Shown one piece after another: positions 6,214-20,537 of a DNA stretch of 60,107 bases (the first letter of the stretch is position 1; each line of letters opens with the position of its first letter). The notes under the pieces were generated by a model that was not told the DNA's origin, did no database searches, and saw only the letters and a list, made by a program, of their open reading frames with translations. A program made the translations under genes and the position numbers. Location: the IMG/VR virus record IMGVR_UViG_2974779775_000001, positions 1 through 60,107 of that record; one strand, 5' to 3'. The stretch is from Samistivirus egole (Duplodnaviria; Heunggongvirae; Uroviricota; Caudoviricetes).

Positions 6214-6220
6214 GTGTTCG

Positions 6221-6456: not shown

Positions 6457-6458
6457 GT

Positions 6459-6782
6459 TTACTCCTGACAGAGAGGCAGGCCCAAGTCGTCCTGCATGTC
6501 CAGAAAGTCCGAGTTGAAGATTTCAAGGTACGTGCCACCCTTGATTTCTTCGATACCGAGCATGTATGCCACGATGAGCCTGTGACATCCCTCGTGAATC
6601 ATGTTCTGCTCCTCATCATAGCAGATGGGAGAGACGATTCCAAGGGTCTGGCATGAGTCCATGAACTCATCCGACAGCTCAGACAGCTTGCGCAAGAGAA
6701 GTTGTTCACGAGTGAGACCAAGAGCCTCGGCGTCGTAGAACAGAGCGTTGTCGATGAGTGCCTTCACACTGTACATCTTCAT
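6459..6782 (-). CDS. ParB/Sulfiredoxin-like domain protein, paralog of 5908-6213
   Basis: SDEFMDSCQTLGIVSPI...IHEGCHRLIVAYMLG. Confidence 0.65.
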   Translation of the reverse strand: MKMYSVKALIDNALFYDAEALGLTREQLLLRKLSELSDEFMDSCQTLGIVSPICYDEEQNMIHEGCHRLIVAYMLGIEEIKGGTYLEIFNSDFLDMQDDLGLPLCQE

Positions 6783-6805
6783 TGCTTTCCCCTTTCGCTA
6801 GTACG

Positions 6806-6835
6806 AGTCTACTGCACTACCGGGCCCCATGTCAA
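6806..6835 (-). promoter_or_regulatory. Early promoter
   Basis: TTGACA-N18-TAGACT. Confidence 0.85.
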
Positions 6836-6908
6836 CACATCTGAAAAATGTCCGGGGCCGCCAAAAGGGGCCCCGAAGGGCCCCCAAGGGGTCAAGCCGT
6901 TGTTGTGA

Positions 6909-7181
6909 TTAGTCCTCGCTGGTGTCCTTCTGGCTCACCAGCTTCGCACGACCGAGCAGAGAGGCGTCAGCCTCCTTCCACTTACGGACCGGGCGACCGG
7001 TGCGCACGCGGGGGAAGCGGGCCAGGATGGCACGGGCGCGGGTCTCGTCGGCCTCCAGGATGTCGAACCGCTGGAAGGGAGCGACGTTGGACGTGGCACC
7101 GAACTCGATGTCCACCCCCTGGACAATCATGGCCACACGGAGGGCGAGAGCGTCACGGGCGGGAACGATACCGGCAATCAT
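6909..7181 (-). CDS. Hypothetical protein
   Basis: 90-aa ORF, GGAG RBS, GC3-rich codons, followed by a hairpin and a palindrome. Confidence 0.75.
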   Translation of the reverse strand: MIAGIVPARDALALRVAMIVQGVDIEFGATSNVAPFQRFDILEADETRARAILARFPRVRTGRPVRKWKEADASLLGRAKLVSQKDTSED

Positions 7182-7294
7182 GTGAACTCCACTGCTAGAA
7201 GTAAGCTGGGGTATGAAGTTGTCAGAGACTTTGGCAGGAAGGGAAAAACCTCACGTTGCGAGGCCCTGTGGCCTGTCCCCTTGTGCTTAGCTAG

Positions 7295-7324
7295 AGTCTA
7301 GCAGGCTGACCTACTCGCAGTCAA
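7295..7324 (-). promoter_or_regulatory. Early promoter (-35 inside the 3' end of the upstream gene)
   Basis: TTGACT-N18-TAGACT. Confidence 0.75.
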
Positions 7325-7493
7325 CCAGGTACTCGGGCTCGTCGTCCTCGGAGACGGTCCAGATGTCCGCCAGCCATCCGCTACGGATGACGCCAGCCGA
7401 CACGAACTTGTGCGGCTCAGCAGCCTCACGGACAGCGTCCGCGTGCTCCTCTTCGGAGATGATGCTGTAGCCCTCGGGAATCTCGAACGTCAT
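7311..7493 (-). CDS. Small acidic hypothetical protein
   Basis: 60 aa, GAGGAG RBS, own promoter. Confidence 0.8.
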   Translation of the reverse strand: MTFEIPEGYSIISEEEHADAVREAAEPHKFVSAGVIRSGWLADIWTVSEDDEPEYLVDCE

Positions 7494-7538
7494 GATTGCT
7501 CCTCTCTTGGGGAGGTTTCCCTCCCTTTCGATGTTCTA

Positions 7539-7567
7539 AGTCTACATGAGAGATGGGGCGGACGCAA
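7539..7567 (-). promoter_or_regulatory. Early promoter
   Basis: TTGCGT-N17-TAGACT-N6-ATCGAAAGGG. Confidence 0.75.
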
Positions 7568-7626
7568 CACCCAATATTCGTTAGGCTGCCTAAGTTGTCC
7601 GGGTCCGACCCCGAAGGGCCAGACTG

Positions 7627-7785
7627 TTAATCTCCCATGTCATCCAAGTGAGCATCGGGAGCGGGCTCGAACTCAAGGAAGGTGTCTTCGAAAAGCACCA
7701 TCCATGCGTAGCCCTCACGGTTGTCAGGATTGCACTTACCACGGTGCATGTCACCCGTGGCAGCACCACACTCAATGCAGGTCAC
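7627..7785 (-). CDS. Small Cys/His protein (52 aa, MTCIECGAATGDMHRGKC...)
   Basis: GTG start overlaps the upstream TGA; AAGGAGG RBS; not in the supplied ORF track. Confidence 0.7.
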   Translation of the reverse strand: MTCIECGAATGDMHRGKCNPDNREGYAWMVLFEDTFLEFEPAPDAHLDDMGD

Positions 7786-8000
7786 TCGGCCTCCTTGATG
7801 TCCATGGCAACCAGCATGTCAACCCTGCTGACAGTGAGGGCAATCTCTCGCCCGTCCTTGTCAGTGAAGTTGAAGGTACTTGCCTTGGCAGCGACCGCCT
7901 TGCGCCACGACTCGTTCGTCTCCTCCGCACTGTGCGAAGTCAGAGTGAACAGAACCGGCTTGTCACGGTGGGCCAGGTGAACAGCAACGCGAGTAGCCAT
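7782..8000 (-). CDS. Hypothetical protein
   Basis: 72 aa, GAGAGGA RBS, own promoter. Confidence 0.8.
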   Translation of the reverse strand: MATRVAVHLAHRDKPVLFTLTSHSAEETNESWRKAVAAKASTFNFTDKDGREIALTVSRVDMLVAMDIKEAE

Positions 8001-8045
8001 GATGCATCCTCTCTTCCGGGAGTTTTTCTCCCTTTCGATGCTCTA

Positions 8046-8074
8046 ACTCTACACCATCAGACAGACAGAATCAA
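8046..8074 (-). promoter_or_regulatory. Early promoter
   Basis: TTGATT-N17-TAGAGT-N6-ATCGAAAGGG. Confidence 0.75.
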
Positions 8075-8121
8075 GACTGTCGGGCCCCGACACGGGCCCC
8101 GAAGGGCCCGGCGGGAAGGTG

Positions 8122-8406
8122 TTACTTCTTGGCCTTGGCGCGCTTGTTGCTGTGGTTGCCGTTCATGAGGGCCGTGAAGTCCAGCATGATGTTCTGCTTG
8201 AAGTTGGTCGCTCCGTGGAACTTGCCGTCCTGGTCACGGATGACGATGCGGACCTCGGTGGAGTCGCTGCCCGGAGTGGTCTTCCAGGTCTCCAGACGGA
8301 TGCTGTAGGTGCTCTTGGAGCCCTTGACCTTGAAGCCCTCGGAGATGGTGACGCTGGAGACGATGTTGTGGTTGACGTCGGTCGCCTTGCGAAGGGTAAC
8401 AGCCAC
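8122..8406 (-). CDS. Basic hypothetical protein
   Basis: 94 aa, GTG start with AGGAG RBS. Confidence 0.8.
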   Translation of the reverse strand: MAVTLRKATDVNHNIVSSVTISEGFKVKGSKSTYSIRLETWKTTPGSDSTEVRIVIRDQDGKFHGATNFKQNIMLDFTALMNGNHSNKRAKAKK

Positions 8407-8458
8407 GGTGACTCCTAAGTCTCTGCTAGGGGTTTCTTTCCCCCTTGCTGATAGCTAA

Positions 8459-8487
8459 AGTCTACACGACTCAGCCGACAAGTACAA
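8459..8487 (-). promoter_or_regulatory. Early promoter
   Basis: TTGTAC-N17-TAGACT. Confidence 0.75.
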
Positions 8488-8548
8488 CCCATGAAATTAT
8501 GTCCGAAATGTCTGTCGGAGCCGGACAGGGGCCCGAAGGCCCCTCCCG

Positions 8549-8875
8549 TCAGTCTGCCAGGATGGCGGCCAGACGCTCACGCTGCGCACGGTCATGCGCA
8601 CCGGAACGGCTCGCGTACTCCTGGAACTCGGAGACGGTTTCGACGGAGAAGTGTCCGTTTTCGTCCAGCTTGGCCACACGAACGGTGTAGCGTCGGGCGT
8701 AGTCGTCGTTCCGCTCCGAAGAGACGAAGAACATGGACTGTCCGTCGATGGTGCTGTAGCACATGTCCGAAATGCGCGACTTCCACCACCGCATGGTAGA
8801 AGCGGAGAAGAAGTGGTTGCCCTGGTCCTTGGCGATGGCCTTGGCGTCCTCGATGCTGAACAGAACCTTACGCAT
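8549..8875 (-). CDS. Hypothetical phage protein (GNHFFS..TMRWW.SR family)
   Basis: 108 aa from MRKVLF; GAGGA RBS; own promoter. Confidence 0.8.
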   Translation of the reverse strand: MRKVLFSIEDAKAIAKDQGNHFFSASTMRWWKSRISDMCYSTIDGQSMFFVSSERNDDYARRYTVRVAKLDENGHFSVETVSEFQEYASRSGAHDRAQRERLAAILAD

Positions 8876-8904
8876 TTGGGGTTCCTCTCCCTCGGTGTAA
8901 GACG

Positions 8905-8933
8905 AGTCTATCAGAGACAAGGGACATGCACAA
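8905..8933 (-). promoter_or_regulatory. Early promoter
   Basis: TTGTGC-N17-TAGACT. Confidence 0.7.
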
Positions 8934-8990
8934 CACCTACCGGGCCTTTTTGAAAATGTCCGACCCCGACAGGGCCCGAAGGCCCCTCTG

Positions 8991-9305
8991 TCAGGATTCG
9001 ATGGACTTCTGACGCTCACGCGGGAGCGCAGCCACCTCCGTGATGATTTCGGTCAGACGCTCCTCATCGACCCACCCCTCAACGGAGTCATCCAACACGC
9101 CATTGTCGTCAGGCATGTTGCCCTCGGGGTCGAAGATTCCGCATTCGACTCCGTAGGTTCCGTACGCCTTGACGACCGACAGACGCCATCCGTTCTCGTA
9201 GTTGACGTAGAAGTGGATGCCCGTTCCGTTCTCACCGTGACGCGGACCGAAAGTGACCTTTGCACCCGGAGCAACGTCACGCGCGATGTTGGCAAGCTCA
9301 CTCAT
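8991..9305 (-). CDS. Hypothetical phage protein
   Basis: 104 aa from MSELAN; own promoter, followed by a hairpin. Confidence 0.8.
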   Translation of the reverse strand: MSELANIARDVAPGAKVTFGPRHGENGTGIHFYVNYENGWRLSVVKAYGTYGVECGIFDPEGNMPDDNGVLDDSVEGWVDEERLTEIITEVAALPRERQKSIES

Positions 9306-9336
9306 GGTCTTTCCCTTCGTCGTTTTCGTTAGCACT

Positions 9337-9365
9337 AGTCTAGCAGTCGGATTTTTGAGTCGCAA
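9337..9365 (-). promoter_or_regulatory. Early promoter
   Basis: TTGCGA-N17-TAGACT. Confidence 0.7.
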
Positions 9366-9446
9366 CCCCTCAGACCGATTTTTTAGTCTGTGGGCAAAAT
9401 GTCTGTTTTTTTAGTCGGGGGCGGACGCCCCGAAGGGCTAGCCGCC

Positions 9447-9758
9447 TTACTCCCAGGGCCGGTAGTCAGACCAGTCGGAACCCTCGTGATTCTGAATTTC
9501 GACGGTCACCGTGTCACCCAAACGGTGATTCACGCTGTACAGGGAACGGCTGGAGCCCTGGTAACGCCTCTGGGCCTTTGCCCACTTGACCAGCTTCTCA
9601 GCCTGCTTACGGGAACGGCAGGGCCATGCCTCGATGCACTCTCCGTAGTTGTACCACCATCCGCCCTCTTCCGAGCCACCACAGGCCCGGTCCACCAGAT
9701 GAATGTTCACCCAGTGCTTGTTCCGACGACGCTGACCCATACGCAGACCCTTGGCCAT
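9447..9758 (-). CDS. Hypothetical phage protein (R.CGG.EEGGWWY motif)
   Basis: 103 aa, AAGGAGG RBS. Confidence 0.8.
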   Translation of the reverse strand: MAKGLRMGQRRRNKHWVNIHLVDRACGGSEEGGWWYNYGECIEAWPCRSRKQAEKLVKWAKAQRRYQGSSRSLYSVNHRLGDTVTVEIQNHEGSDWSDYRPWE

Positions 9759-9782
9759 TTCCGCCTCCTTGTTGATGACCTA

Positions 9783-9811
9783 AGTCTAACAGAAGCCTAG
9801 GACAGATTCAA
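9783..9811 (-). promoter_or_regulatory. Early promoter
   Basis: TTGAAT-N17-TAGACT. Confidence 0.75.
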
Positions 9812-9866
9812 TATGCTTGCCAGGATGTACAGTGATTGTCGGACCCGGACAAAAAAATTCGCCTAC

Positions 9867-9927
9867 AAATTCACCCCTCTTTTCTAAGGGAATCTGGGAA
9901 GAAATCCTTGAAAAGAGGGGTGAATTT
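9867..9927. repeat. Perfect 18-bp inverted repeat with a 25-nt spacer in an AT-rich non-coding tract
   Basis: AAATTCACCCCTCTTTTC (9867-9884) / GAAAAGAGGGGTGAATTT (9910-9927). Confidence 0.85.
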
Positions 9928-10181
9928 TTTCTGCGAATGTTTTTCGAAGGTCAGATTGCGACTTTTTCGTCTTTTCCTGCCTCACAAAGGCAGTATTTCG
10001 AATGTGTCGCCTCGATTGCGACAAAGCCGCTTTCCTGATACCTCGAAAGAAGGTTGGCCAGAAGGGACGAGTTGAAAACCGGTGTTTTGGATTTCAGCCC
10101 GTCCCTTTCCAGCAAAAGGGACATACTGTGGAATCGAACCTGAGAAACAGCCTTTTTCCGCATTATGCCCCCCCCTACTGC

Positions 10182-10328
10182 CTAGGCCAGTTCGGACATG
10201 TGCGGGTAGGCGTCCCAGTCGAAGCCGTCCACACGGTCACCATCCTGCACATCGGACACAGGCACCGTGATGGTGGTGAAGACACCAGCGTCGCTGGCCT
10301 GCTCAAGAAGGGTACGGAGGTCAGTCAT
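10182..10328 (-). CDS. Small acidic hypothetical protein (48 aa, MTDLRTLLEQASDAG...)
   Basis: Translated by hand; purine-rich RBS and own promoter; not in the ORF track. Confidence 0.7.
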   Translation of the reverse strand: MTDLRTLLEQASDAGVFTTITVPVSDVQDGDRVDGFDWDAYPHMSELA

Positions 10329-10359
10329 GTTCTTCCTTCTTCCTCTTGGTGATAGCTCT

Positions 10360-10388
10360 AGTCTAGTCTACGTACATGGGGGATGCAA
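10360..10388 (-). promoter_or_regulatory. Early promoter
   Basis: TTGCAT-N17-TAGACT. Confidence 0.7.
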
Positions 10389-10448
10389 GCCCTAGATGTT
10401 CCGGGAATTTTCAGCGCCTATCGTACACGCGCGGGGGAAATGTGGGGT

Positions 10449-10575
10449 ATGTACTTAATGTACCTTAATAGGGCCTATGTACCATATGTCCGATATGTAC
10501 CATGCGTACCTGTATGTACCCATATAGCAGGATATATCCCCTATCCTCCCTATGTACCGAATGTCCGATATGCCC
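10449..10575 (+). repeat. Phased hexamer array ATGTAC/ATGTCC with ~9-10 bp periodicity
   Basis: Hexamers at 10449, 10458, 10477, 10486, 10495, (10504), 10514, 10552, 10561 and 10570. Confidence 0.75.
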
Positions 10576-10691
10576 GTTTGTCGGGGACGGACTGTTACAC
10601 ATCCGTTATCTAAGAAACCCTGTTTTGGTGGTTTGGCGGGCCCTGACTAGGGCATGATGTAGGCATAGCCACTACGGACCAGGGAGACACA

Positions 10692-11153
10692 GTGAACGCC
10701 ACCACCGCCACCCACACCAACACCCACACTGACGGCCGGACCTGCACCTACAGCACGGAAAAGGCCACAAACGCCCGTGTGCGTAGGCAGGTGCTCGCTA
10801 CGGTCCTGTACCTGGCTAGCCTTACGGGAGACAGTGACGGGGCCACATGGGCTAACTGTGTGGGGTGTGGGGAGCGTGCCCACGTGGGTGGTACGCCTAG
10901 GGCCATGGACACGTTCAACCTTGGCCACGTGCACAGTGATGCTGAGGGTGGCATGTGGTGCGTGTGCAACTTCCTTCCCCTGTGCAGGCAGTGCAACGTA
11001 GACATGGGCAAGGAACACATGATGGACCTTCTCACCCCGATGTATGACAATCGGGACATGTGGGACGGTAAGCTCCTCAAGGACACCGGGGCTGAGGTTG
11101 CACCCATGGACAACCGAGGACGTGCCCGCTGGAACGCCCCCACGGGCCGCTAA
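10692..11153 (+). CDS. HNH-family endonuclease-like protein
   Basis: CVGC...LGHV...NFLPLCRQCN zinc/HNH pattern; GGGAG RBS before the GTG. Confidence 0.7.
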   Translation: MNATTATHTNTHTDGRTCTYSTEKATNARVRRQVLATVLYLASLTGDSDGATWANCVGCGERAHVGGTPRAMDTFNLGHVHSDAEGGMWCVCNFLPLCRQCNVDMGKEHMMDLLTPMYDNRDMWDGKLLKDTGAEVAPMDNRGRARWNAPTGR

Positions 11154-11167
11154 GCGGCTTTGAGAGT

Positions 11168-11196
11168 AGCCCCTAGGACGTAGTGGCCTAGGGGCT
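11168..11196. terminator. Hairpin at the convergence of the early HNH gene and the leftward operon
   Basis: AGCCCCTAGG-N9-CCTAGGGGCT then CTTTC. Confidence 0.65.
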
Positions 11197-11391
11197 CTTT
11201 CATGCCCTCAGACGGGCCCTCAGCCCTTTTGAAAACGGCTTTCAACTAGGGTGGAACCTTCCCCGGAACCTTCCCGCAAGAGAATGTCAAGGGATATGGG
11301 CGCACTATCTGGATTGTTACAAAGGTATGCGAAGCATGTATCGTACAACATCAAAAATTACTAACATTTCGCACACCTTTTAATGTAACAA

Positions 11392-11628
11392 TTAGGTAAC
11401 GTCGGGGTCGGACTCTTCCTCATCCATTACGAATGATGGGGGAGGAGAGAACGTCTTTCCCGCAGAATGGGCGTCGAATACGGCTTTCGCTTCGTCAGGA
11501 TTTACAGCACGAGCAATGCACATCATTACGTCGTAGATACGAAACAACATGATTGTCTGTACTATCTCTGATGCATCCTCTGCGAATACATCTTGAGGCT
11601 CGTTGTCACTGTTCATCTTGTCTGTCAT
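11392..11628 (-). CDS. Hypothetical protein
   Basis: Acidic ORF overlapping the thyX stop; start 11628 or 11616. Confidence 0.7.
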   Translation of the reverse strand: MTDKMNSDNEPQDVFAEDASEIVQTIMLFRIYDVMMCIARAVNPDEAKAVFDAHSAGKTFSPPPSFVMDEEESDPDVT

Positions 11629-12391
11629 TCCCAAATGGTTTGAGAGCGACAGGGAATTCAGGAACAATGAGGTCACGAACGGCCTGCGCATACTGCTGAA
11701 TTTCGTACTGTGCCTTGTGCTCTAGTCTTTCATTGAGAAAATGCATTACTGCTGCAAGGCTGGTAGTCCAACGCCATCTTACATACATACCATATGCGGG
11801 GAGGAATAGTCTTGCTTGTTCCGGCGCGATTCCTGCTCGCATAGCAGTCTCGTATAGTTCCTGGCCTTCTTCGATGTAATCGGCCAGAGCACCTGTCCAA
11901 TAGTCACCGTATTCAGGCTGACATCCGACAACCTTCTGATTTGGCGTTTCTGCTGGAAGAGGCTCACCACTTCCTTGCTTGCTATTAGCGGGCTTTGAAC
12001 GCCATTCGTTCTCTGCTGGCATGTGGAATGTAGGGTCTTCTGTTACATACCTTCTTGATGATTCATTCCAGCCTATCTGGTCATCAAGGGCTGTACTGGC
12101 AACAGTGTACTTCCACCACTGCCGGGCCACAAATAGTGGCGCATATACTTCAAATGTCAGTGCAACATGACGAAAAGGAGAGTATTCCTTGTTTCTGACT
12201 AGGAAATTAATCAGTCTTTCATCCTTGTCAGAGAACTCGGCACTCTCCTTCGCGTAACTTACTCGTGCTGCATTGACGATTGAAAGGTCTGTACCCATGT
12301 GGTCTACGAGTCTTACGTATCCCTGGTCCAGTACATCAATCTTCGTCAACGTCCATCCATCCTTGTTCTTCAAAAGCGGTAACCCAGTCAC
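11606..12391 (-). CDS. thyX: FAD-dependent thymidylate synthase ThyX
   Basis: YVRLVDHMG.DLSIVNAARVSY, PF.H..LTFEVYAPLFVARQW, NESSRRY, PEQARLFLP, HFLNERL...AQYEI motifs. Confidence 0.92.
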   Translation of the reverse strand: MTGLPLLKNKDGWTLTKIDVLDQGYVRLVDHMGTDLSIVNAARVSYAKESAEFSDKDERLINFLVRNKEYSPFRHVALTFEVYAPLFVARQWWKYTVASTALDDQIGWNESSRRYVTEDPTFHMPAENEWRSKPANSKQGSGEPLPAETPNQKVVGCQPEYGDYWTGALADYIEEGQELYETAMRAGIAPEQARLFLPAYGMYVRWRWTTSLAAVMHFLNERLEHKAQYEIQQYAQAVRDLIVPEFPVALKPFGNDRQDEQ

Positions 12392-12578
12392 TCGCTGGCA
12401 AATCTGATGGCACGAATTCTACCTTGAAGGTGTGAATTATGCCTGTTTCTCGTTCTCGTACTGCAAAATGGTTACCCACAAAAGTGATATCGTGGGTGTC
12501 TTCCATGTGGTTCATGTTGTTGTAAATGTCTTCGAATAGGAAGAGGTCAAGAATCTCTTGTGCACGTTCTCTTGTCAC
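12336..12578 (-). CDS. Hypothetical protein
   Basis: 80-aa ORF in a tightly packed operon. Confidence 0.7.
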   Translation of the reverse strand: MTRERAQEILDLFLFEDIYNNMNHMEDTHDITFVGNHFAVRERETGIIHTFKVEFVPSDLPASDWVTAFEEQGWMDVDED

Positions 12579-12739
12579 TTTAGATTCTCAATCTCTCCAT
12601 CGAGCCGGGCAATTTCGCGCTTGTAGCGCTGCTCAAGAATTCTGTTTCCAGCACTCTTGGCCTTTTCCATTCCACGAGCTGCGTTCCTACGCTGCTCGTA
12701 CAGGCTATTGAGAGCCTTCTTAACGTCCTTGTCGGTCAT
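12575..12739 (-). CDS. Hypothetical coiled-coil protein (54 aa, MTDKDVKKALNS...)
   Basis: Translated by hand; TGA overlaps the next GTG. Confidence 0.65.
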   Translation of the reverse strand: MTDKDVKKALNSLYEQRRNAARGMEKAKSAGNRILEQRYKREIARLDGEIENLK

Positions 12740-12878
12740 TTGCTATCAGCCATTCCTGTAGGGCGTATATCTCGGTCGCTATCTGCTTACCGCGCGGAGT
12801 GCTTCTGTGCTTCAAGTATTCGACCTTGAGATTAGCAAGTCTCTTCTCTGCTTCGTCCTTGTTCTTGGGGCTGCTCAT
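12720..12878 (-). CDS. Hypothetical protein (52 aa, MSSPKNKDEAEKRL...)
   Basis: Translated by hand; start overlaps the upstream stop. Confidence 0.6.
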   Translation of the reverse strand: MSSPKNKDEAEKRLANLKVEYLKHRSTPRGKQIATEIYALQEWLIANDRQGR

Positions 12879-13195
12879 ATGTTATTCCTGTCAAGGATGC
12901 CGTGTACGTAGTCGGCATCTATATCGTCGTAGTTAGACAGCATTCTTAGTTCTGCTGTCGCTTCCTTGTACCGGCGATTTTCTGACAGATAGTTGTCAGC
13001 ATCATTAGCCCACCGGTAGGCATCTTTGCGAAGTGCTAGGAACTTCTCTCGGGGAATCTCTTCATCGGGCAGGATATCAAATTCAACCCATACTGAATAC
13101 TCCTCTTCTGTCATTCCTAGAAACTCGTGGAGTGACATTTCTGTGTCACTGTCATGCCACTTGTCCACGAGGTCTTCTAGTTGTCCTCTGTTCAT
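12875..13195 (-). CDS. Hypothetical protein
   Basis: 106 aa; LHEFLGMTEEEY..W motif typical of phage proteins. Confidence 0.75.
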   Translation of the reverse strand: MNRGQLEDLVDKWHDSDTEMSLHEFLGMTEEEYSVWVEFDILPDEEIPREKFLALRKDAYRWANDADNYLSENRRYKEATAELRMLSNYDDIDADYVHGILDRNNI

Positions 13196-13199
13196 GTCC

Positions 13200-14057
13200 T
13201 CAGTTTGTCACATGTCCTGGGACATTGTCAAGACGTGACACTGCCTTGTTCACTGTGTTCACCGGGACATCTGTCCCCTTGATGTCACAAATCTGCTTGT
13301 GCAATTCTTTTCTGTCCGTGACACCCTTGTCCCATAGCTCTCTAACCAGGGCGGACACTGACTTGTCCTTGTTTGTCACCGCTGTCTCTGTCACCTTTTT
13401 TGTCCCTGGGACATTGTCCGTGACAGGAATATCCGGTGACGTGACAGAAAATGTCTTGTCCTCTGTCTTTGCCACCTTGTCCTTTTTGTCACCTGTCTTG
13501 TCCTTTGTCCTCTTTCTGTCCAGAGGCTGTCCAGTGACATTTGTGACGGCTTCATTCAGACGGAAGAATACCACATCCTTGAAGCCACGGAAAGTCTTGC
13601 CTGGGAAGATAAGCCAGCTAATCTTACCAAACACTGGCATACGCTTAGGAACAAGACCCATTGAGCGCATCTCGCTTCGGTGAACAAAGCGCAGATAAAG
13701 CTCGAAAAGGATTCCGGCAATAACTGGTGGTGCTCCAAAAAGAACCATTCCAGGGATGCCATAGGATAGCAGGATGGCGTGCTCTACGTTGAGGTAGACA
13801 GACGCACCAACGAACAGATATGTTGCTAGTTTTGTTGCAAGGCCAGAATCTTCTGTTCTGGCATACTTTGAGGCAAGGTCAGCTACAAACAGAGCTGCGC
13901 CATCAAAAGCCGCGCTTACACCGATAGCAAGAATCTGGGGCACGCCATAGAACGTAATTGCGAGCGAATAGAGACTCCACCAAGATAGTGCGAGGCTTAC
14001 AACAAGCACAATCGCAAAGCCGAGCCAACCAACCTTGAATTTCTTAAGATATTTCAT
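13200..14057 (-). CDS. DUF2637-like membrane protein with a C-terminal putative HTH (Spd-like)
   Basis: Four N-terminal hydrophobic helices (LALSWWSL, AAFDGAAL, SVYLNVEHA), a low-complexity linker and a helical C-terminal domain. GAGGAG RBS at 14057. Confidence 0.7.
   Translation of the reverse strand: MKYLKKFKVGWLGFAIVLVVSLALSWWSLYSLAITFYGVPQILAIGVSAAFDGAALFVADLASKYARTEDSGLATKLATYLFVGASVYLNVEHAILLSYGIPGMVLFGAPPVIAGILFELYLRFVHRSEMRSMGLVPKRMPVFGKISWLIFPGKTFRGFKDVVFFRLNEAVTNVTGQPLDRKRTKDKTGDKKDKVAKTEDKTFSVTSPDIPVTDNVPGTKKVTETAVTNKDKSVSALVRELWDKGVTDRKELHKQICDIKGTDVPVNTVNKAVSRLDNVPGHVTN
13206..13540. repeat. Dense TGTC/GACA repeat field inside the 3' half of the DUF2637-like gene
   Basis: About 32 TGTC or GACA by hand count in ~335 bp, including TGTCCC-T-GGGACA (13401), TGTCC-TG-GGACA (13213) and GGGACA-TC-TGTCCC (13264). 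Confidence 0.85.
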
Positions 14058-14796
14058 TAGCCCTCTCCTCTGTGATAGGCTTGTCGTCCTTCCATCCGAC
14101 GATGATTGTATTTGGTCTATAATCAGTTTCGTGCAGATGCTTCTTTGAACTATTGCATGACTTACATAGAATTTGGAAGTTTCTGAAAGAGTGCTCTCCA
14201 CCCAAATAGAGGGGAACAATATGGTCTAGAGTTAGAATGCTGTCTGACGTGCATTCAGGATTGAGACAGACATTGCCGTAGAAATCCTTAACGATTGTCA
14301 TGTAGTCTCTAGGAAGAGGTTCAACCGTTCCTGCACGTTTTGCAGCGAAGTACCTTGCATTGTTTCCTCTGACAATATCCCTATTGTTCTCAACCCATCT
14401 ACGAGTGTTCTCTTTTCTTCTTTCAGGATTGCTTTGATGCCATCGTCTGTTCTTTTCTCTAGCGGCCTCTGGATTATTCTTATGCCATTCGTGGTTCTTT
14501 TGCTTAACCTTATCCGGATTAGCTAGTCTCCAACGGCGGGTGGCTTCCCTATTTGGCTCAGGATTGACTGCCCTCCTGGCTCTCGCTTGGGCATTCTTCT
14601 TTTCTCGGTTACGCTCGGTCCATTCGCGCTCATATTGTCTGAACTTATCTGGATTAGCTTCACGAGCCTTCTTGCGTTTAATCTTGGCGCATTCGAGGCA
14701 GTGCCCCTTCAATTTTATCGTGCCATCTGCCCTCTTTCCGTCCTTTCCAAATTCGGACAGCCCTTTAGACAGACCGCAGCTATTGCATGTCTTCAT
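14044..14796 (-). CDS. HNH homing endonuclease with N-terminal zinc finger and repeated W...NPE/NP helices
   Basis: CNSC...CLEC; C-terminal LTLDHIVPLYLGGEHSFRNFQILCKSCNSSK. Confidence 0.88.
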   Translation of the reverse strand: MKTCNSCGLSKGLSEFGKDGKRADGTIKLKGHCLECAKIKRKKAREANPDKFRQYEREWTERNREKKNAQARARRAVNPEPNREATRRWRLANPDKVKQKNHEWHKNNPEAAREKNRRWHQSNPERRKENTRRWVENNRDIVRGNNARYFAAKRAGTVEPLPRDYMTIVKDFYGNVCLNPECTSDSILTLDHIVPLYLGGEHSFRNFQILCKSCNSSKKHLHETDYRPNTIIVGWKDDKPITEERANEIS

Positions 14797-14924
14797 GTAG
14801 CTACAATAGCATAAAATTCATTATTGTGCCACCAACTCAGTGCCAGCGCGACAATGAGAACAACTCCGAATGATATTGAACCCCGCCAGTCAAGAATACG
14901 CTTGACGTTTGGCGTTTTCATCAT
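14793..14924 (-). CDS. 43-aa peptide resembling the N-terminus of the DUF2637-like protein (remnant 5' end)
   Basis: MMKTPNVKRILDWRGSISFGVVLIVALALSWW; AAGGAG RBS; TGA overlaps the HNH ATG. Confidence 0.6.
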   Translation of the reverse strand: MMKTPNVKRILDWRGSISFGVVLIVALALSWWHNNEFYAIVAT

Positions 14925-14942
14925 TCTCCTTTAGACAAAAGT

Positions 14943-14969
14943 GCAGGCGGCCCGGATTGGACCGCCTGC
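14943..14969 (-). terminator. Intrinsic terminator after dps
   Basis: GCAGGCGG...CCGCCTGC followed by ACTTTTG on the minus strand. Confidence 0.7.
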
Positions 14970-14976
14970 TATGAAA

Positions 14977-15378
14977 TTATTTTCCTGACTCACTGAACAT
15001 CCAGAGCCACTTATCGATACCTCGCTTAACCTCAATGAGGACATCCTGTGTTGCAAGGTCATCGGTAATGTTCAGTATACCATTCTGTAGAACGTGGGTC
15101 AATCCTCTTAGAGAACTCACCATGTTATCCACAACCTGCTGGTAACTTACTGATTCACCGGACATTTCGTATGCAACCTTTGGAGCAAGATACCAACCGT
15201 TTGCTCGTGCACGTTCAGCGATAGCGTCAGCATATTCGGTTATATCGGAGTGAAGCTCATCCAGCTTCTCATGTAGGTAAAAGAACTCCTTACCCCTGAG
15301 ATTCCAATGACTCTCCTTGACGACCAAGGAGAGAATCAAAAGCCATTCGAGAGCTTCCTCCATCTTTGCTTCTAGCAC
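14977..15378 (-). CDS. dps: Dps/ferritin-like protein
   Basis: HWNLRG.EF..LHEKLDE......D.IAER and D..TQD......DKWLWM ferroxidase pattern. Confidence 0.8.
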   Translation of the reverse strand: MLEAKMEEALEWLLILSLVVKESHWNLRGKEFFYLHEKLDELHSDITEYADAIAERARANGWYLAPKVAYEMSGESVSYQQVVDNMVSSLRGLTHVLQNGILNITDDLATQDVLIEVKRGIDKWLWMFSESGK

Positions 15379-15589
15379 TCTCCACCTCCTTAATCGCCGT
15401 TTTTACGTTGTGATGCATCTCTAGACCAGGAAGTATGTAAGTATCACATACCATGCACCATAGTCTGAGGTCGGTAGATGCACCAGGCTTTAGTCTGACT
15501 ATCAAATTGTTATGACAATCGGGACACTCTAGTGCCGGGGCCAAATTCTCTTTGACTAGTCGATTGTATTTATGAAAGTCCTGCCACAT
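15290..15589 (-). CDS. Zinc-ribbon protein
   Basis: CPDC...CMVC; its 3' end overlaps the dps start. Confidence 0.65.
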   Translation of the reverse strand: MWQDFHKYNRLVKENLAPALECPDCHNNLIVRLKPGASTDLRLWCMVCDTYILPGLEMHHNVKTAIKEVESARSKDGGSSRMAFDSLLGRQGESLESQG

Positions 15590-15601
15590 GCAATCAGTGT
15601 A

Positions 15602-15805
15602 TCACGCATCTCTCAAAGTGCGTAGTACGTTCTCTACGTCATGTGTAGCAGTCTCAATTGCATTACGAAGATTACTCACTTCGTTCTCATAAGCATTGTC
15701 AGCCTCAACGGCATCCTGCTTGATTTCACTGATAAGGGCAGTAACAAGATTTCTGTTCAAGCCAGCCGAATCGGTCAATAGAAGCAGCTCAATTTCCGCT
15801 CTCAT
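15602..15805 (-). CDS. Hypothetical protein
   Basis: 67 aa, coupled to the upstream gene. Confidence 0.7.
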   Translation of the reverse strand: MRAEIELLLLTDSAGLNRNLVTALISEIKQDAVEADNAYENEVSNLRNAIETATHDVENVLRTLRDA

Positions 15806-15966
15806 TTAACACCATCCACATGTGAATGTGACCTACAAACAATCACTGACTTCCCGAAATAGGTAACAGTGACGGCTGGCTTGTTCGGACAGTTCTTCAT
15901 GTAACACTTGCCCTTTGAATTGCGAGTGTTCTCGCCTTTCTTGTCTCTTCCAAGACTGTCAGGCAT
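15802..15966 (-). CDS. Small Cys/His protein
   Basis: C....C...........C..H; start MPDSL overlaps the cytidylyltransferase stop. Confidence 0.6.
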   Translation of the reverse strand: MPDSLGRDKKGENTRNSKGKCYMKNCPNKPAVTVTYFGKSVIVCRSHSHVDGVK

Positions 15967-16420
15967 CGCGTAGCTTCTCCTTGATTCTTGTGGTTGACAT
16001 TCCAGTACGTCTATCAATGTAAATGAGAATTAGGTCGTTCTCATCCAGCCATTCCTTGGTGAATTGCATCTGGCCATAATAATCTCTACCGGCCCAATCT
16101 GAACCAATGGCGACTACTTCAATCAGACCATCCATACCTGAATCATGCATAACTTTACAGGCATTGACAATGGATTTCTTTGAATCCTCTTCACCAATAT
16201 TAGGAACAACAAGGTCCACGTATCGACATGATTCCAGAACTAGCTTACGCTCTCTGAATGTCTGTACTGGTGGATTGTTCTTGAACCTGGCAATGAATTC
16301 GTCTGTATTCAGACTTACTACTACCTTACCATCTCCAGCAAGCCTCTTGCAAGAGCGGAGAAGTTCTACGTGTCCTTCGTGAAACAAATCAAATGTTCCA
16401 CCTGTGTAAATGTTAGGCAC
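15959..16420 (-). CDS. Cytidylyltransferase (TagD/RfaE-like)
   Basis: YTGGTFDLFHEGH (HXGH), RERKLVLESCRYVDLV, GSDW, RRTGMSTT. Confidence 0.88.
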   Translation of the reverse strand: MPNIYTGGTFDLFHEGHVELLRSCKRLAGDGKVVVSLNTDEFIARFKNNPPVQTFRERKLVLESCRYVDLVVPNIGEEDSKKSIVNACKVMHDSGMDGLIEVVAIGSDWAGRDYYGQMQFTKEWLDENDLILIYIDRRTGMSTTRIKEKLRDA

Positions 16421-17069
16421 GTAGATACTCCACGTCAGTGGGAAGCTGATACTTTACCCACATATTGAATGCAAGCTGGTCGTGGTCCCACATCTCACCG
16501 GAATTTGCTTCCTGATACGTCTTGTCATCAGCAGCCTTGCCAGCAAATGGATGCAGATGTTCCATGTTCACATGTTCAAGGTAGGTCAGCGTTCCCAGAC
16601 CCTCTCCCAGAGCCTTCCAGTAGTTGTCAGCAAATAGATGAATAAGGGTTGGGGCAACCATGTACCCAAGCTTTCTTACAATATCGCTGTCCATAAAGAC
16701 AGCCGTAGGAAGGCCCTGGCCCTGCCAACCATCATTTGCATAAGCCACCATATTTCGCTGGAACTGATTGGCAATCTCAACATCCCATCGATAGGTATGA
16801 GGAAGAACGTCATCTCCCATAAATCCGATGATGTCGCAATAGTCAACATACTCTTCGGCCATTGCGTTGAGCGTTCCCACCAGTCTTCGCCTTCTGCCAA
16901 TACGAAGAGGAAGTCCGCTATCGAGATATTCTTCCAGCTTTTCGTCATCTTCGTCTACACAGAATACAGCTTCTATATCTGCTGTAGTGTCAATTGCCTC
17001 ATTCAGTCGCTGGGCGTTTTCTGGACGACCTCTGGTAGGAATGAGGACAGTAATTCTTTTCTCTCTCAT
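16413..17069 (-). CDS. Glycosyltransferase family 2-like
   Basis: VLIPTRGRP, FCVDEDD, FMGDD, HLFADN. Confidence 0.8.
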   Translation of the reverse strand: MREKRITVLIPTRGRPENAQRLNEAIDTTADIEAVFCVDEDDEKLEEYLDSGLPLRIGRRRRLVGTLNAMAEEYVDYCDIIGFMGDDVLPHTYRWDVEIANQFQRNMVAYANDGWQGQGLPTAVFMDSDIVRKLGYMVAPTLIHLFADNYWKALGEGLGTLTYLEHVNMEHLHPFAGKAADDKTYQEANSGEMWDHDQLAFNMWVKYQLPTDVEYLRA

Positions 17070-17692
17070 GCGTAATCCGTCTCTTGTACAATGCTCTTTT
17101 CAAGACCTGTGATGTACACAAGGTCAGCCCACGTAGGCTTTGAGCAATATCCATTTAGCTCACCGGCCTTGGCGTACATATAAAGGGTGTCGTCGTACTG
17201 GCCAGTCAATCCATCTCTTTCGAGTAGAGCCTTTATCTTCTGGGCTCCATTCTCAGAATACATCATGGAGACACCACCATATCTCTGATAGACCTTAGTG
17301 AGACTTCTACTGACACCATCTCTGCGCTCATCGAACATCTTGTCAGAGTCTCTTGGAATAAAGAGTGAGAAGAAGTCCCAATCATCAGGCAATTCGGCTA
17401 CACGCTGTTCGAAATTGAGCTGAAAATCGTCATGTAGCAAAGCGTCATCCTCAAAGGTCACGATGGGTGCCTTTTCAATCGCATTCAGTACGCTGTACCA
17501 AATACCCAAATGGCCCAGACGTGCATCCCAATTGATTGCATATGGATGCTTTGCCTGAGCCTCACGAAGTTCGTCAATATCACGTCCGTCTACTGCCAAA
17601 ACGCGAACATGCTCCCAGCTTTCAAGCTTTGGGAGCATTTTCTGAATGTAGTGCAGACGAGAATAATCTATGCTGAATATTGTATATCTCAT
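17066..17692 (-). CDS. Glycosyltransferase family 25-like
   Basis: AVDGR, GHLG...S, VTFEDDA pattern. Start moved to MRYTIF to avoid the tRNA. Confidence 0.7.
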   Translation of the reverse strand: MRYTIFSIDYSRLHYIQKMLPKLESWEHVRVLAVDGRDIDELREAQAKHPYAINWDARLGHLGIWYSVLNAIEKAPIVTFEDDALLHDDFQLNFEQRVAELPDDWDFFSLFIPRDSDKMFDERRDGVSRSLTKVYQRYGGVSMMYSENGAQKIKALLERDGLTGQYDDTLYMYAKAGELNGYCSKPTWADLVYITGLEKSIVQETDYA

Positions 17693-17709
17693 ATCTCTAT
17701 TTCTGTGAG

Positions 17710-17780
17710 AGCCCCGCAAGAGAATCGAACTCTTAACTCTTCATTACGAAAGAAGTGCGTTACCATTACGCCAGCGGGGC
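17710..17780 (-). tRNA. tRNA-Thr(CGT)
   Basis: Cloverleaf: GCCCCGC/GCGGGGC acceptor, GCGT/ACGC D-stem, TT-CGT-AA anticodon loop, AAGAG-TTCGATT-CTCTT T-arm; CCA not encoded. Confidence 0.88.
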
Positions 17781-17790
17781 AGTGGTGAAA

Positions 17791-18264
17791 TCAGAGCTTC
17801 CACCAGGCTCGTCTACGACGACGACGGGACTTCTTTACCTTTATTACGCTTAGTATACACAAAGCGACAGCAACAGTCAACACCAAAGGACTGGCACCGA
17901 AGTAAAAGAGCACTATGGTAAATCCAAACAGCGCAATCCGTAGTTTCCATAGAGAACTAATCATGCTAGGTCTTCTAGGTGCTGGCCTTGTACTACCGGC
18001 GAATCTTGCACCCTTGCTTTGGTTGCATCTCAAGTGAGCGAGAGCCACATTACCCCAAACATGACCAGGAGAGTTCTCACGCCAACTAAGTGGAGTGATA
18101 TGGTCAAGCGACGCAGACCTTGGGTGAGGATATTTCAATCTCTTATTCACCCTTTTGTTGCAAAGATGGCATACCCATCCTGACTGCGCGTAGACCTGAG
18201 CCCTGGTAATACTGGGGTCATATGGAACACCGTACTCTATGCAACGGTCTTCATCTGTCTTCAT
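17791..18264 (-). CDS. HNH nuclease domain fused to a C-terminal transmembrane hairpin and Arg-rich tail
   Basis: CHLC...SLDHITPLS...GHVWGNVALAHLRCNQSKG, then two hydrophobic helices and RRRRRR. Confidence 0.8.
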   Translation of the reverse strand: MKTDEDRCIEYGVPYDPSITRAQVYAQSGWVCHLCNKRVNKRLKYPHPRSASLDHITPLSWRENSPGHVWGNVALAHLRCNQSKGARFAGSTRPAPRRPSMISSLWKLRIALFGFTIVLFYFGASPLVLTVAVALCILSVIKVKKSRRRRRRAWWKL

Positions 18265-18291
18265 AACAGAAGCATAGCATGATTGTCAAGC

Positions 18292-18846
18292 TCAGTACCA
18301 ATTGTTGTCTCGGAAATGAGCCCATGCATTACAAGGAGAGCCGTAGCGGTCCTCGATGTAGTCTACACCCCATTTCACCTGAGTGAAAGGGTTTGTCTTC
18401 CAATCCTTACCAGCTTTGGCCATCTTCGAGCCCGGTAGAGCTTGAGGAATTCCATAAGCACCTGATGAGGAATTTACTGCATTTTCATTCCATTTGCTCT
18501 CATGATGCCATAGATTGTTCAGACAAGAGAACTGCTTGGAACCGACCTGCTCCTTCGCAAATTCCTTTGGAGTAGGCTTTGGCGTTGGTGTACGCACAAC
18601 AAGCGAACTCAAGGAAGGTTTTGGAGTAGGTGAAGATGTCAGACTAGGCTGTGGTGCAGCCTTTGGAGCCTCACTCTTGCTTGGTGTTGCTGATGGCGAT
18701 GATGACGGACTTTGCTTTTCAGCTACCGGCTTTGGAACATCCAAAGGCAGATTGCCTGTTTCTGACAAAGCAGTTACAACTGTTGCTGTAGCTACTCCGA
18801 TACAGAGAGCAATGGCAGCTATATTGCCCCTCATATCTTGACCCAT
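18292..18846 (-). CDS. Membrane-anchored/secreted lytic transglycosylase (SLT-like)
   Basis: N-terminal signal/TM, Pro-Ser linker, CLNNLWHHESKWN...SGAYGIPQALPG...QVKWG..YI..RYG; GGAGG RBS. Confidence 0.82.
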   Translation of the reverse strand: MGQDMRGNIAAIALCIGVATATVVTALSETGNLPLDVPKPVAEKQSPSSSPSATPSKSEAPKAAPQPSLTSSPTPKPSLSSLVVRTPTPKPTPKEFAKEQVGSKQFSCLNNLWHHESKWNENAVNSSSGAYGIPQALPGSKMAKAGKDWKTNPFTQVKWGVDYIEDRYGSPCNAWAHFRDNNWY

Positions 18847-18875
18847 TGTTACCTCCAAGTTGAGTTGGTCCAATG

Positions 18876-18904
18876 AGTCTACAGATGTAACGGTTCTGTG
18901 TCAA
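18876..18904 (-). promoter_or_regulatory. Sigma70/HrdB-type promoter
   Basis: TTGACA-N17-TAGACT. Confidence 0.85.
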
Positions 18905-19071
18905 GACAGTACAGAGATGTACTTAACAATCTTCACAGAAGTTGCACCATCTGCTTCAAGCTCTGCCTTTTCAATGAGAGCTTCTGCATGAGAAATGATT
19001 TCATCTGTTTCTTTGAATTCTCCCTTAGTATTTCTATACTTTAGGAAATATCCTTTAACTTCTACAGACAT
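18901..19071 (-). CDS. Hypothetical protein (56 aa, MSVEVKGYFLKYRN...)
   Basis: Translated by hand; AT-rich; AAGGAAG upstream. Confidence 0.55.
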   Translation of the reverse strand: MSVEVKGYFLKYRNTKGEFKETDEIISHAEALIEKAELEADGATSVKIVKYISVLS

Positions 19072-19110
19072 TGTAATTATCTTCCTTGAGAGAGATTAGT
19101 AAGTATTTTC

Positions 19111-19250
19111 ATGAGGTTACGAAGTAACCTCATCTACTAACATCGTTAGATGTTAGTAGTTAATTTATATAGTCCCGCTATGAAATAGCGGGTCTTACAC
19201 ACCCCACCAGGTCGAAACTGGAAGCAGTGACCGCAGAGTGAGGTAAGACC
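19111..19250. repeat. Cluster of back-to-back inverted repeats
   Basis: ATGAGGTTAC-GAA-GTAACCTCAT (19111-33); CTACTAACATC-GTTA-GATGTTAGTAG (19134-59); CCCGCTAT-GAA-ATAGCGGG (19174-92); GGTCTTAC...GTAAGACC (19191-19250). Confidence 0.85.
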
Positions 19251-19290
19251 CTTGGAGAACCCTCAGACCGTTAGTCGGATTTTAGGCAAA

Positions 19291-19440
19291 TAAAAATGCC
19301 CCAGGAAGTTGCGACCCTTCCTGGGGCATTTAGACGTAAATGCACGATGTTGGTCGCAACAACATCCTGTTCTCCATTCAGGATAGCGCAACCAACATCG
19401 TGTGTCAAATCGAGTGTATTTGAGGCGTACCTCAACCACT
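19291..19440 (-). ncRNA. Putative ~150-nt structured sRNA or attenuator leader
   Basis: Flanked by a TTGACA/TACGAT promoter and a 15-bp terminator hairpin (19294-19331) with a U tract. Internal 12-bp stem 19343-54/19391-402 with an inner 6-bp stem. Confidence 0.55.
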
Positions 19441-19475
19441 GATATAATCGTAGCATAGCTCAAAGAGCATGTCAA
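19420..19475. promoter_or_regulatory. Overlapping divergent promoters with an inverted repeat on the rightward -35
   Basis: Plus: TTGAGG-N17-TATAAT (19420-48). Minus: TTGACA-N17-TACGAT (19475-47). TTGAG-GCGTAC-CTCAA palindrome at 19420-35. Confidence 0.75.
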
Positions 19476-19490
19476 CGACGAAGGGAAGCT

Positions 19491-20459
19491 ATGGATATCA
19501 GCTTTTCAACGATTCCGGGCAATTTGAACACGACCATTGGATATGGCGTGGCCGGATTCAACATGGTTCGCAGTCTACAGAAGCTAGGTCACAGAGTGCC
19601 CTTCGCTGACAAAAGCTGCCCCATTGAAATCTTCTTCTCCCAGCCAGATTACTGGGAATGGAGTAATCAGTTCAACTATCATATCGGTTATACTCCTTGG
19701 GAATCAACCCAACTGCCACCGGGCTGGCTTGAGAATATGAATCTTGCTGATGAGGTTTGGACGACATCAGAAATCATCAAGCGCTGGTACACAGCAGCCG
19801 GTGTGAAGAATGTCAAAGTTTACCCACATGGTATTGACCCAATCTGGACTCCGAAGAAGCGAAGCGTATATGAGAAGATGAAGTTTCTGCACATGGGAGA
19901 ACCAGCTCCTCGCAAGGGAGGACAAATGGCTGTTGACGCATTCCGTGCAGCATTTGGAGACAACCCTGATGTAGAGCTTACAGTAAAGGCTCACCGATTG
20001 AACAATGTGCGCCGGTACGAGAACGGAAGAATCATTGGTTCAATTGATGACTACAGCAATGTAAGACTTGTGACCCAAGAACTACCAGAAGACCATCTGG
20101 TCAGCTTTGTCAAGCAGCATCATGTCATGGTCTATCCAAGCTGGGGAGAGGGATTCGGTCTCATCCCATTCCAGGCCATCGCAACAGGAATGCCAACCAT
20201 TTGCACGGCTAAGTGGGCAGAATATAAGAACTATCTTGGACCACTTGGACTGGACTCAAAGCTTGCTGATTCACCTTGGCCCGGTACTCATCCAGGGAAG
20301 ATGCTTGAACCAAGCTTTGATGACCTTGTAGATAAGTACAGATATGCATACGACAACTTTGATGAACTGAGCAATGAATTCTACTTTCAGGCACCCTACT
20401 TGCACGCAGAGTACAACTGGGAAAAGCTCACCGAAGAAGCCTTCGCCCACTTGATTTAA
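19491..20459 (+). CDS. Glycosyltransferase family 4 (GT-B)
   Basis: TPWESTQLP, DEVWTTS, HG, RKG, YPSWGEGFGLIPFQAIATGMPTI. Confidence 0.88.
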   Translation: MDISFSTIPGNLNTTIGYGVAGFNMVRSLQKLGHRVPFADKSCPIEIFFSQPDYWEWSNQFNYHIGYTPWESTQLPPGWLENMNLADEVWTTSEIIKRWYTAAGVKNVKVYPHGIDPIWTPKKRSVYEKMKFLHMGEPAPRKGGQMAVDAFRAAFGDNPDVELTVKAHRLNNVRRYENGRIIGSIDDYSNVRLVTQELPEDHLVSFVKQHHVMVYPSWGEGFGLIPFQAIATGMPTICTAKWAEYKNYLGPLGLDSKLADSPWPGTHPGKMLEPSFDDLVDKYRYAYDNFDELSNEFYFQAPYLHAEYNWEKLTEEAFAHLI

Positions 20460-20537
20460 GTGGGCGTTTGCTGTAGCATAGAGGAACTACGCGATGATAG
20501 CCGTGCCTAACGAAGCACGGCCAGAAGGGATTTTACT

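Follow-up and report, generated by a model that had tools for sequence, protein, structure and literature searches.

A conserved array of short DNA words inside the DUF2637 membrane-protein gene of Streptomyces phages: a candidate membrane tether with its own docking site

We analyzed a stretch of 60,107 nucleotides from Samistivirus egole (positions 1 to 60,107 of the record IMGVR_UViG_2974779775_000001, in the following called the window), which is the left 60 kb of a Streptomyces phage genome of 135,653 bp with a direct terminal repeat of 11,341 bp. The gene at issue encodes a DUF2637 membrane protein, and over its region the window shows 98% identity to the cluster-BE phage Samisti12. The gene product belongs to the Pfam family PF10935 (26.6 bits at a cut-off of 22.8, residues 13–161), as which its homologues are also annotated, and it matches phrog_10376 with an E-value of 6e-150. 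The 3′ part of the gene is at the same time a dense field of the tetramer GACA and its complement TGTC, named array 1, and a second field of the same word is found elsewhere in the genome (Table 1).

Table 1: Features discussed in the text; coordinates refer to the window unless marked as genome positions.
Feature	Coordinates	Strand or orientation	Remarks
DUF2637 membrane-protein gene (P0001)	13200..14057	-	285 amino acids; C-terminal three-helix domain; open reading frame, Pfam, PHROG, AlphaFold
Part coding for the transmembrane helices (residues 8-132, four helices)	13662..14036	-	1 GACA/TGTC site only
Part coding for the disordered linker (residues 183-228; K/D/T/V-rich)	13374..13511	-	DNA word written as VT and DK dipeptides
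Part coding for the C-terminal three-helix (helix-turn-helix-like) domain (residues 229-285)	13203..13373	-	also holds array sites
Array 1	13195..13540	both (24 + 9)	33 GACA/TGTC sites, core RKGACA, irregular spacing
HNH endonuclease gene, inserted in the 5′ end of the DUF2637 gene	14044..14796	-	open reading frame
Stranded original DUF2637 N-terminus, upstream of the HNH insertion	14826..14921	-	tblastn
Dps/ferritin-like gene (context), the next one upstream in this leftward row of genes	14977..15378	-	Pfam Ferritin, E 2e-11
TraB-like FtsK/SpoIIIE ATPase gene	genome 75384-77198		604 amino acids
Sub-array 2a	genome 78798-78960		overlies DUF3307 membrane-protein gene; z 6.4
Sub-array 2b	genome 79858-80125		overlies PhoD_N domain of phosphatase gene; z 8.1, rest of gene z about 0

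On the plus strand, positions 13200–13545 contain 23 TGTC and 9 GACA compared to a window mean of 2.3 sites per 200 bp, which is the highest density of this tetramer in the whole 135.6-kb genome. Within the gene 32 sites fall into the last 360 nt and a single one into the first 495 nt. The original prediction, made from the letters of the window, had reported about 32 sites in the 3′ half of the coding region with near-palindromes among them, and our recount reproduced both, TGTCCC-T-GGGACA at ~13401–13413 being one such near-palindrome. Its expectation of about 3 sites by chance holds for the base composition but has to be raised to ~10 once the amino-acid sequence is taken as given. Keeping the protein fixed and drawing codons from the usage of the window, we obtained 9.9 ± 2.3 sites with a maximum of 20 in 20,000 draws, and the codon usage of the neighbouring early genes gave 9.8 ± 2.4, so that the excess survives a control for amino-acid composition. 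Permutation of synonymous codons within the 3′ part resulted in 18.7 ± 2.1 sites (maximum 27), whereas 10.7 were expected after shuffling the codon order and 5.6 after shuffling the amino-acid order and redrawing the codons. The codon choice in the 3′ part leans towards the word, with ACA for 12 of 16 threonines (25% in the window), GTC or GTG for 16 of 17 valines and GAC for 11 of 13 aspartates. Counting the flanking bases extends the word to RKGACA (GTGACA, RGGACA) in both orientations, and GTGACA, AGGACA and GGGACA together make up 65% of the array sites compared to 15% of the GACA sites elsewhere. A C precedes GACA at none of the 33 sites of array 1 and at 1 of 66 over all arrays (GCGACA), and it follows GACA at 3 of 33.

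One rival explanation denies the array any function as DNA and regards it as a side effect of a low-complexity peptide, of repeats born by slippage or of a local codon bias. The linker is indeed rich in D, K, T and V, and the amino-acid sequence alone raises the number of sites to be expected from about 4 to about 10, but even the highest of the fixed-protein draws stays well below the number observed. An origin of the array from tandem repeats was rejected as TRF detected none in array 1, and the sites occur in both orientations with irregular spacing, for which the spacing analysis revealed no fixed phase but only a triplet bias.

The array is also retained by all other BE phages tested. We compared the source phage with seven further orthologues from Samistivirus, Coruscantvirus and Karimacvirus (98% to 65% protein identity), all seven of which carry 24–34 sites in the 3′ part of the gene with z 6.2–9.9. 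Their linkers differ in length and sequence by indels and substitutions, yet the sites persist. In the codon alignment the conserved peptide VTNVT is written as GTC-ACA-AAT-GTC-ACT in Samistivirus and as GTC-GTG-ACA-AAC-GTG-ACA in Karimacvirus, and Val-Thr is encoded by GTC-ACN (TGTCAC) in some lineages and by GTG-ACA in others, which is one hexamer with its orientation flipped. At the AVSRL/ALSRM position a TGTCAC site even outlives the change from Val to Leu. Among seven divergent phages, the codons of invariant residues agree in their third position in 10 of 111 alignment columns (9%) in the 5′ part, compared to 11 of 28 columns (39%) in the 3′ part (Fisher p = 3e-4). An overlapping gene on the antisense strand was considered and rejected, because among relatives the stretch without stop codons is anything from 93 to 224 amino acids long.

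The second field of the RKGACA word lies outside the window at genome 78.8–80.1 kb, 66 kb away from array 1, and is the only other region of the genome with a comparable density. Both fields are present in all six BE genomes examined (the source phage, Jay2Jay, Mildred21, Coruscant, Yaboi and MindFlayer), the second one in a syntenic position and in Yaboi, Coruscant and Mildred21 partly in intergenic DNA. Where the phosphatase gene is missing, much of the second field is intergenic and the word is there mostly TGTCAC or TGTCAT; that these intergenic arrays are remnants of a phosphatase gene was rejected, as no remnant is detectable. Arrays 1 and 2 show no homology past the short word and, since only this word is common to both, they are not a duplicated segment. 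The same word thus appears in the gene of a transmembrane protein, in the coding part of a PhoD_N domain and between the genes of a syntenic locus, which together with the conserved synonymous sites and the varying antisense frame leaves the explanation as a by-product close to refuted, even if the words of some satellites described below are mostly in one orientation. Judged from these comparisons, the array is a real feature under strong selection at the DNA level.

Homologues of the DUF2637 protein with 31–47% identity carry an array in the same position of the gene but with a different word. In an unbiased test, in which the commonest 5-mer was compared to a fixed-protein null in 12 genes, 10 of them were significant. 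The satellites of BE phages have been described to possess no replication genes, and the two described there have a predicted membrane protein in common (deCarvalho et al., PMC10690885), which we find to be a homologue of the BE DUF2637 protein. In gene 15 of the satellite MulchRoom the density is 24 sites per 300 bp and the sites read CGACA, a flank not found in the BE arrays. Gene 19 of the satellite MiniFlayer shows no GACA field and contains 19 of the 35 TGCGA pentamers of its genome, whereas its helper MindFlayer has the two GACA fields and no TGCGA field. A metagenomic phage homologue carries an AGGCA array in both orientations, and the plasmid NZ_CP108353 encodes a DUF2637 protein of 414 amino acids, whose gene repeats GCGCTCA about 30 times in the half coding for an ‘ALT’-rich linker. 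This gene is located at 5767–7011 of the examined piece (L051), with a gene for a ParB N-terminal domain 1 kb upstream. No array was found in the DUF2637 protein gene of plasmid CP109008, and the homologue P0085 (71% GC) shows an excess of GACCG with its densest window downstream of the gene, an uncertain case. Homologues from Streptomyces chromosomal islands (41–47% identity) possess AGACA or GGACA arrays in the same part of the gene with z 5–6. Two of these islands (L038, about 4000–20800; L040, about 5300–18100) have a GC content of ~50% inside Streptomyces chromosomes of roughly 70% and contain genes for an integrase, Lsr2, a DUF2637-tail protein, terminase, portal and capsid; they resemble the BE satellites and have the look of MulchRoom relatives that integrated into the chromosome.

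Whether homologues carry lineage-specific repeats had been proposed as a check, and they do, CGACA, TGCGA, AGGCA and GCGCTCA each going with its own lineage, as would be expected of a self-bound site. As the helper MindFlayer is without the TGCGA field that MiniFlayer carries, the word follows the encoded protein rather than host or helper. Most simply, this pattern would mean that every C-terminal domain recognizes the array carried by its own gene.

MiniFlayer (OQ357865) has a further repeat, the 9-mer TGTCTGTCC, of which seven copies occur directly or as complement, including those at 12263–12408, 11812, 103 and 16495. Four are clustered inside gene 13 and one is present in each terminal repeat. 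The product of gene 13 begins like what we take to be a winged-helix replication-organiser protein, and gene 13 with its set of TGTCTGTCC copies is a candidate for an origin with its initiator.

For the protein, four N-terminal transmembrane helices and a C-terminal helix-turn-helix-like domain had been proposed, and AlphaFold predicts the four helices and a C-terminal three-helix bundle with a pLDDT of about 80–88. The membrane helices span residues 8–36, 41–66, 73–96 and 100–132 and are followed by two amphipathic helices, a disordered linker (183–228, pLDDT below 50) and a three-helix bundle (234–274). In the domain model the C-terminal bundle is confident, with a pLDDT of 82 and helices at 234–243, 249–260 and 266–274. 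Because of the lysine-rich N-terminus and a basic stretch after helix 4, both ends of the protein are likely to be cytoplasmic according to the positive-inside rule. The weak fold matches of the C-terminal bundle are mostly to DNA-binding helix-turn-helix (HTH) domains, the best being the N-domain of the G20c small terminase, and the fold search with the membrane domain (sets pdb_via_wide and atlas) returned only generic helical bundles (Z ≤ 7.7, TM ≤ 0.32). Searched against 1.84 billion proteins, a profile of the C-terminal domain hit no more than 16 cluster representatives. The matched domain is at the C-terminal end in all of them except the weakest hit; most are 270–300 amino acids long and the others shorter. 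By this search the domain is rare and almost always fused to the DUF2637 membrane anchor. The one match of the profile among PDB sequences, to pyocin S5, was a chance hit, a search of NCBIfam with the domain returned nothing useful, Pfam had no match for it, and one homologue showed sub-threshold hits to HTH_33 and Tc3 only.

Taking these observations together, we propose that the cytoplasmic three-helix domain binds the arrays and holds the phage DNA at the membrane, the 3′ half of the gene being its array of binding sites, a reading to which we assign a probability of roughly 0.5. Because the satellite and plasmid relatives carry their own, different words, the gene probably encodes a membrane tether together with its docking site. 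The four transmembrane helices would sit in the membrane with the N- and C-termini in the cytoplasm, and a flexible linker of about 45 residues would carry the 45-residue HTH-like domain. Many copies of this domain would bind array 1, with its roughly 30 close-packed RKGACA sites, as well as the similar field at 78.8–80.1 kb, so that two places of the phage DNA would be fixed to the cytoplasmic membrane. We suggest with less confidence that such a tether might organise replicating genomes at the membrane or at septa, as p16.7 of phi29 does without sequence specificity, and it possibly acts jointly with a TraB-like translocase of the phage. Of the original idea of a self-binding site, the selection at the DNA level, the repeats travelling with the gene and the change of the word with the lineage are borne out by the comparative data. 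The proposed tie to early palindromes had to be dropped: the 15-bp terminal-repeat palindrome TGTCSG-N3-CSGACA is present in Samistivirus genomes but absent from Coruscant and Yaboi, and since both retain the two arrays it represents a separate system. In the first 13 kb of Coruscant seven copies of TGGCGC-N3-GCGCCA are found in its place, and Yaboi has neither of the two.

Several findings weigh against the tether. The C-terminal domain has only weak fold matches (best Z 5.9; Foldseek E > 1) and hits none of the family models for HTH domains. The distant BK-cluster homologue from phage Wakanda (28% identity) has no array, and the metagenomic homologue P0075 is borderline in the 5-mer test. 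The words of MulchRoom and the chromosomal islands are mostly in one orientation, where duplicated units could inflate the excess. Finally, the reader of the arrays could be another protein, namely a TraB-like ATPase with an HTH-like tail that is encoded near array 2.

This FtsK/SpoIIIE-type protein possesses N-terminal membrane helices, a Walker A motif and the C-terminal HTH-like tail, and its gene lies 1.6 kb upstream of sub-array 2a and 62 kb from the DUF2637 gene. It matches phrog_12531 (‘FtsK/SpoIIIE-like’) over its full length and other FtsK PHROGs more weakly, while Pfam gave only a sub-threshold AAA_10 hit and the FtsK match in the PDB has an E-value of 0.42. The arrays might accordingly be recognition fields similar to clt, used by the ATPase to pump phage DNA through membranes or cross-walls, with the DUF2637 protein as a partner in the position of an Spd protein or as a mere host of the sites. 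The ATPase gene is present in the four BE genomes searched, all with arrays, and missing from the array-less Wakanda, but this correlation amounts to one phylogenetic contrast. Furthermore, a DUF2637 gene of plasmid CP109008 is flanked by genes for a GntR regulator and an FtsK-like protein, an arrangement also seen for spd genes, TraB reads the short repeats of clt via its C-terminus, and a role in the spread of phage DNA would fit a published speculation (both PMC4447253). On the other hand, MulchRoom, MiniFlayer and the islands have arrays and no FtsK-like gene is annotated or called there. One reader encoded by the helper cannot account for all arrays, because the TGCGA field of MiniFlayer is missing from its helper, and the private words of the satellites stay unexplained. 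We consider a clt-like function of the arrays doubtful.

The neighbourhood of the DUF2637 gene, which consists of early and nucleotide-metabolism genes, would also suit a replication origin. In that case the arrays would be iterons, one set inside the gene of the origin-binding protein and a second elsewhere, and the satellites would keep a minimal origin module served by the replisome of the helper. This would agree with two fields of one word per helper genome and one per satellite, and with the membrane protein shared by satellites that were reported to be without replication genes (PMC10690885). It also has a parallel in SPP1, where the direct repeats bound by gp38 belong to oriL, located within gene 38, and to oriR (PMC6316719). 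However, no AT-rich unwinding element accompanies array 1, as no 60-bp window between 12.7 and 14.4 kb reaches 68% AT, and the AT-rich stretch nearest to sub-array 2b is 1 kb off (genome 81141–81240). A four-helix membrane anchor would be unusual for an initiator, the irregular spacing and mixed orientation of the sites speak against an origin, and MiniFlayer has its separate, more classical iteron set within the winged-helix-like gene. An origin function is therefore unlikely in our opinion.

Array 1 is located 1.9 kb inside the 11,341-bp terminal repeat, and in the satellites the DUF2637 gene points to the right terminal repeat at a distance of about 1–1.2 kb. The arrays could thus serve some other DNA transaction through another phage or host factor, such as recognition for packaging near the terminal repeat, a pause of injection or a roadblock for transcription. 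Array 1 does not abut the boundary of the repeat, though, array 2 is located in the middle of the genome, and a shared host factor would leave unexplained why the word tracks the DUF2637 lineage. Binding of the host proteins WhiA (GACAC) or DnaA (Streptomyces box TTGTCCACA) was set aside, as these words do not match the flanks of the sites and GACA is rarely followed by C. We regard this group of explanations as improbable.

The HNH endonuclease gene is found only in the source phage and Samisti12; other BE phages match 60% of this region and are without it. A tblastn search with the N-terminus of the Jay2Jay protein showed 81% identity over 32 amino acids upstream of the insertion, ending at the codons for LALSWW, and the DUF2637 gene downstream of it carries a substitute start, in which the first helix is repeated. 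The Dps/ferritin-like gene directly precedes the DUF2637 gene in every BE phage looked at, and its counterparts in Jay2Jay and Coruscant are annotated as DNA-binding ferritin-like or Dps proteins. The GC skew of the window mirrors the direction of transcription and nothing more.

If binding of the arrays by the C-terminal domain holds true, the phages would possess a sequence-specific tether of DNA to the membrane in which gene and site are inseparable by recombination, with private versions shared by the lytic helpers, by their satellites and by at least one plasmid of Streptomyces. Such a tether would offer a handle on the positioning of viral and plasmid DNA in multinucleate hyphae, which has so far been addressed for conjugative plasmids only. 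The arrays represent a dense regulatory or structural DNA code laid over three kinds of coding sequence via synonymous codons, and recoding or codon-optimisation studies of such phages would need to reckon with it. A more speculative extension, which we think unlikely, is that DUF2637-tail genes are self-contained and portable ‘tether cassettes’ of anchor, sequence-specific reader and array, in which word and reader co-evolve so that there is no cross-talk between co-resident helper, satellite and plasmid. In BE phages the cassette, the second array and the TraB-like pump might then hold or move replicating DNA at hyphal membranes and cross-walls, as a counterpart of the intramycelial spread of plasmids.

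Parts of this arrangement are found in known systems. The Omega protein of plasmid pSM19035 recognizes contiguous heptad words in direct and inverted orientation on one platform that serves as centromere. The many copies of a short word in both orientations are shared with the arrays, but Omega is a soluble ribbon-helix-helix protein without membrane anchor and its sites are in promoter regions off the codons. Protein p16.7 of phi29 is anchored once, at its N-terminus, and shows no sequence specificity in its binding of DNA and terminal protein; no array of cognate sites is known for it. As an integral membrane protein it organises phage DNA replication at the membrane (PMC4974454). The DUF2637 protein would resemble it as an early phage membrane protein that brings phage DNA to the membrane by a cytoplasmic DNA-binding part, but has four predicted helices and a site array.

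Repeats inside a protein's own gene are also known from replication initiators. The ori of lambda lies in the linker-coding part of gene O. In SPP1 oriL is inside gene 38 and oriR is intergenic, with gp38 binding the repeats of both (PMC6316719), so that SPP1, too, has a second copy elsewhere in its genome. These origins consist of few long and ordered repeats with an AT-rich unwinding element and are bound by soluble initiators, whereas array 1 has no such element, its spacing is irregular and the encoded protein is anchored in the membrane.

A comparable setting is that of the Streptomyces conjugative plasmids, whose clt locus for TraB holds 8-bp TRS repeats (PMC4447253). SpdB2 is an oligomeric protein with four transmembrane helices that binds double-stranded DNA non-specifically, phiC31 is cited as having a putative SpdB2 homologue, and it was speculated that SpdB2-like phage proteins aid the spread of phage DNA (PMC4447253). 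In these plasmids, membrane proteins of mobile Streptomyces DNA handle or read DNA by short repeated words, which is the feature proposed here. The phage also encodes a TraB-like ATPase, with its gene close to array 2 but far from the DUF2637 gene, and four helices are predicted for the DUF2637 protein. However, the DUF2637 protein is no ATPase, and homology to Spd proteins, which the comparison in the original prediction might suggest, was not confirmed: pIJ101 SpdB belongs to no Pfam family and gave a probability of 0.8% in hhalign against the DUF2637 family alignment, and PF10935 had no match in pIJ101 and phiC31.

SpdA2 of pIJ101 is a soluble protein of 135 amino acids that binds a 12-bp palindrome present in 2–3 copies inside its own gene (Thoma et al. 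2014, PMC4170104). SpdA2 with its sps sites and the DUF2637 gene are both genes of Streptomyces mobile elements with an internal short motif that shapes the peptide, SRDD/E in SpdA2 and VT/DK here. In contrast to the soluble SpdA2 with its N-terminal DNA-binding region and few palindromes, the DUF2637 gene combines an anchor of four transmembrane helices and a C-terminal domain with ~33 copies of a 5–6-bp word in both orientations and a second locus. By analogy, SpdA2/sps can fairly be regarded as a conceptual precedent for a protein that would recognize sites within its own gene, realized here in a different architecture.

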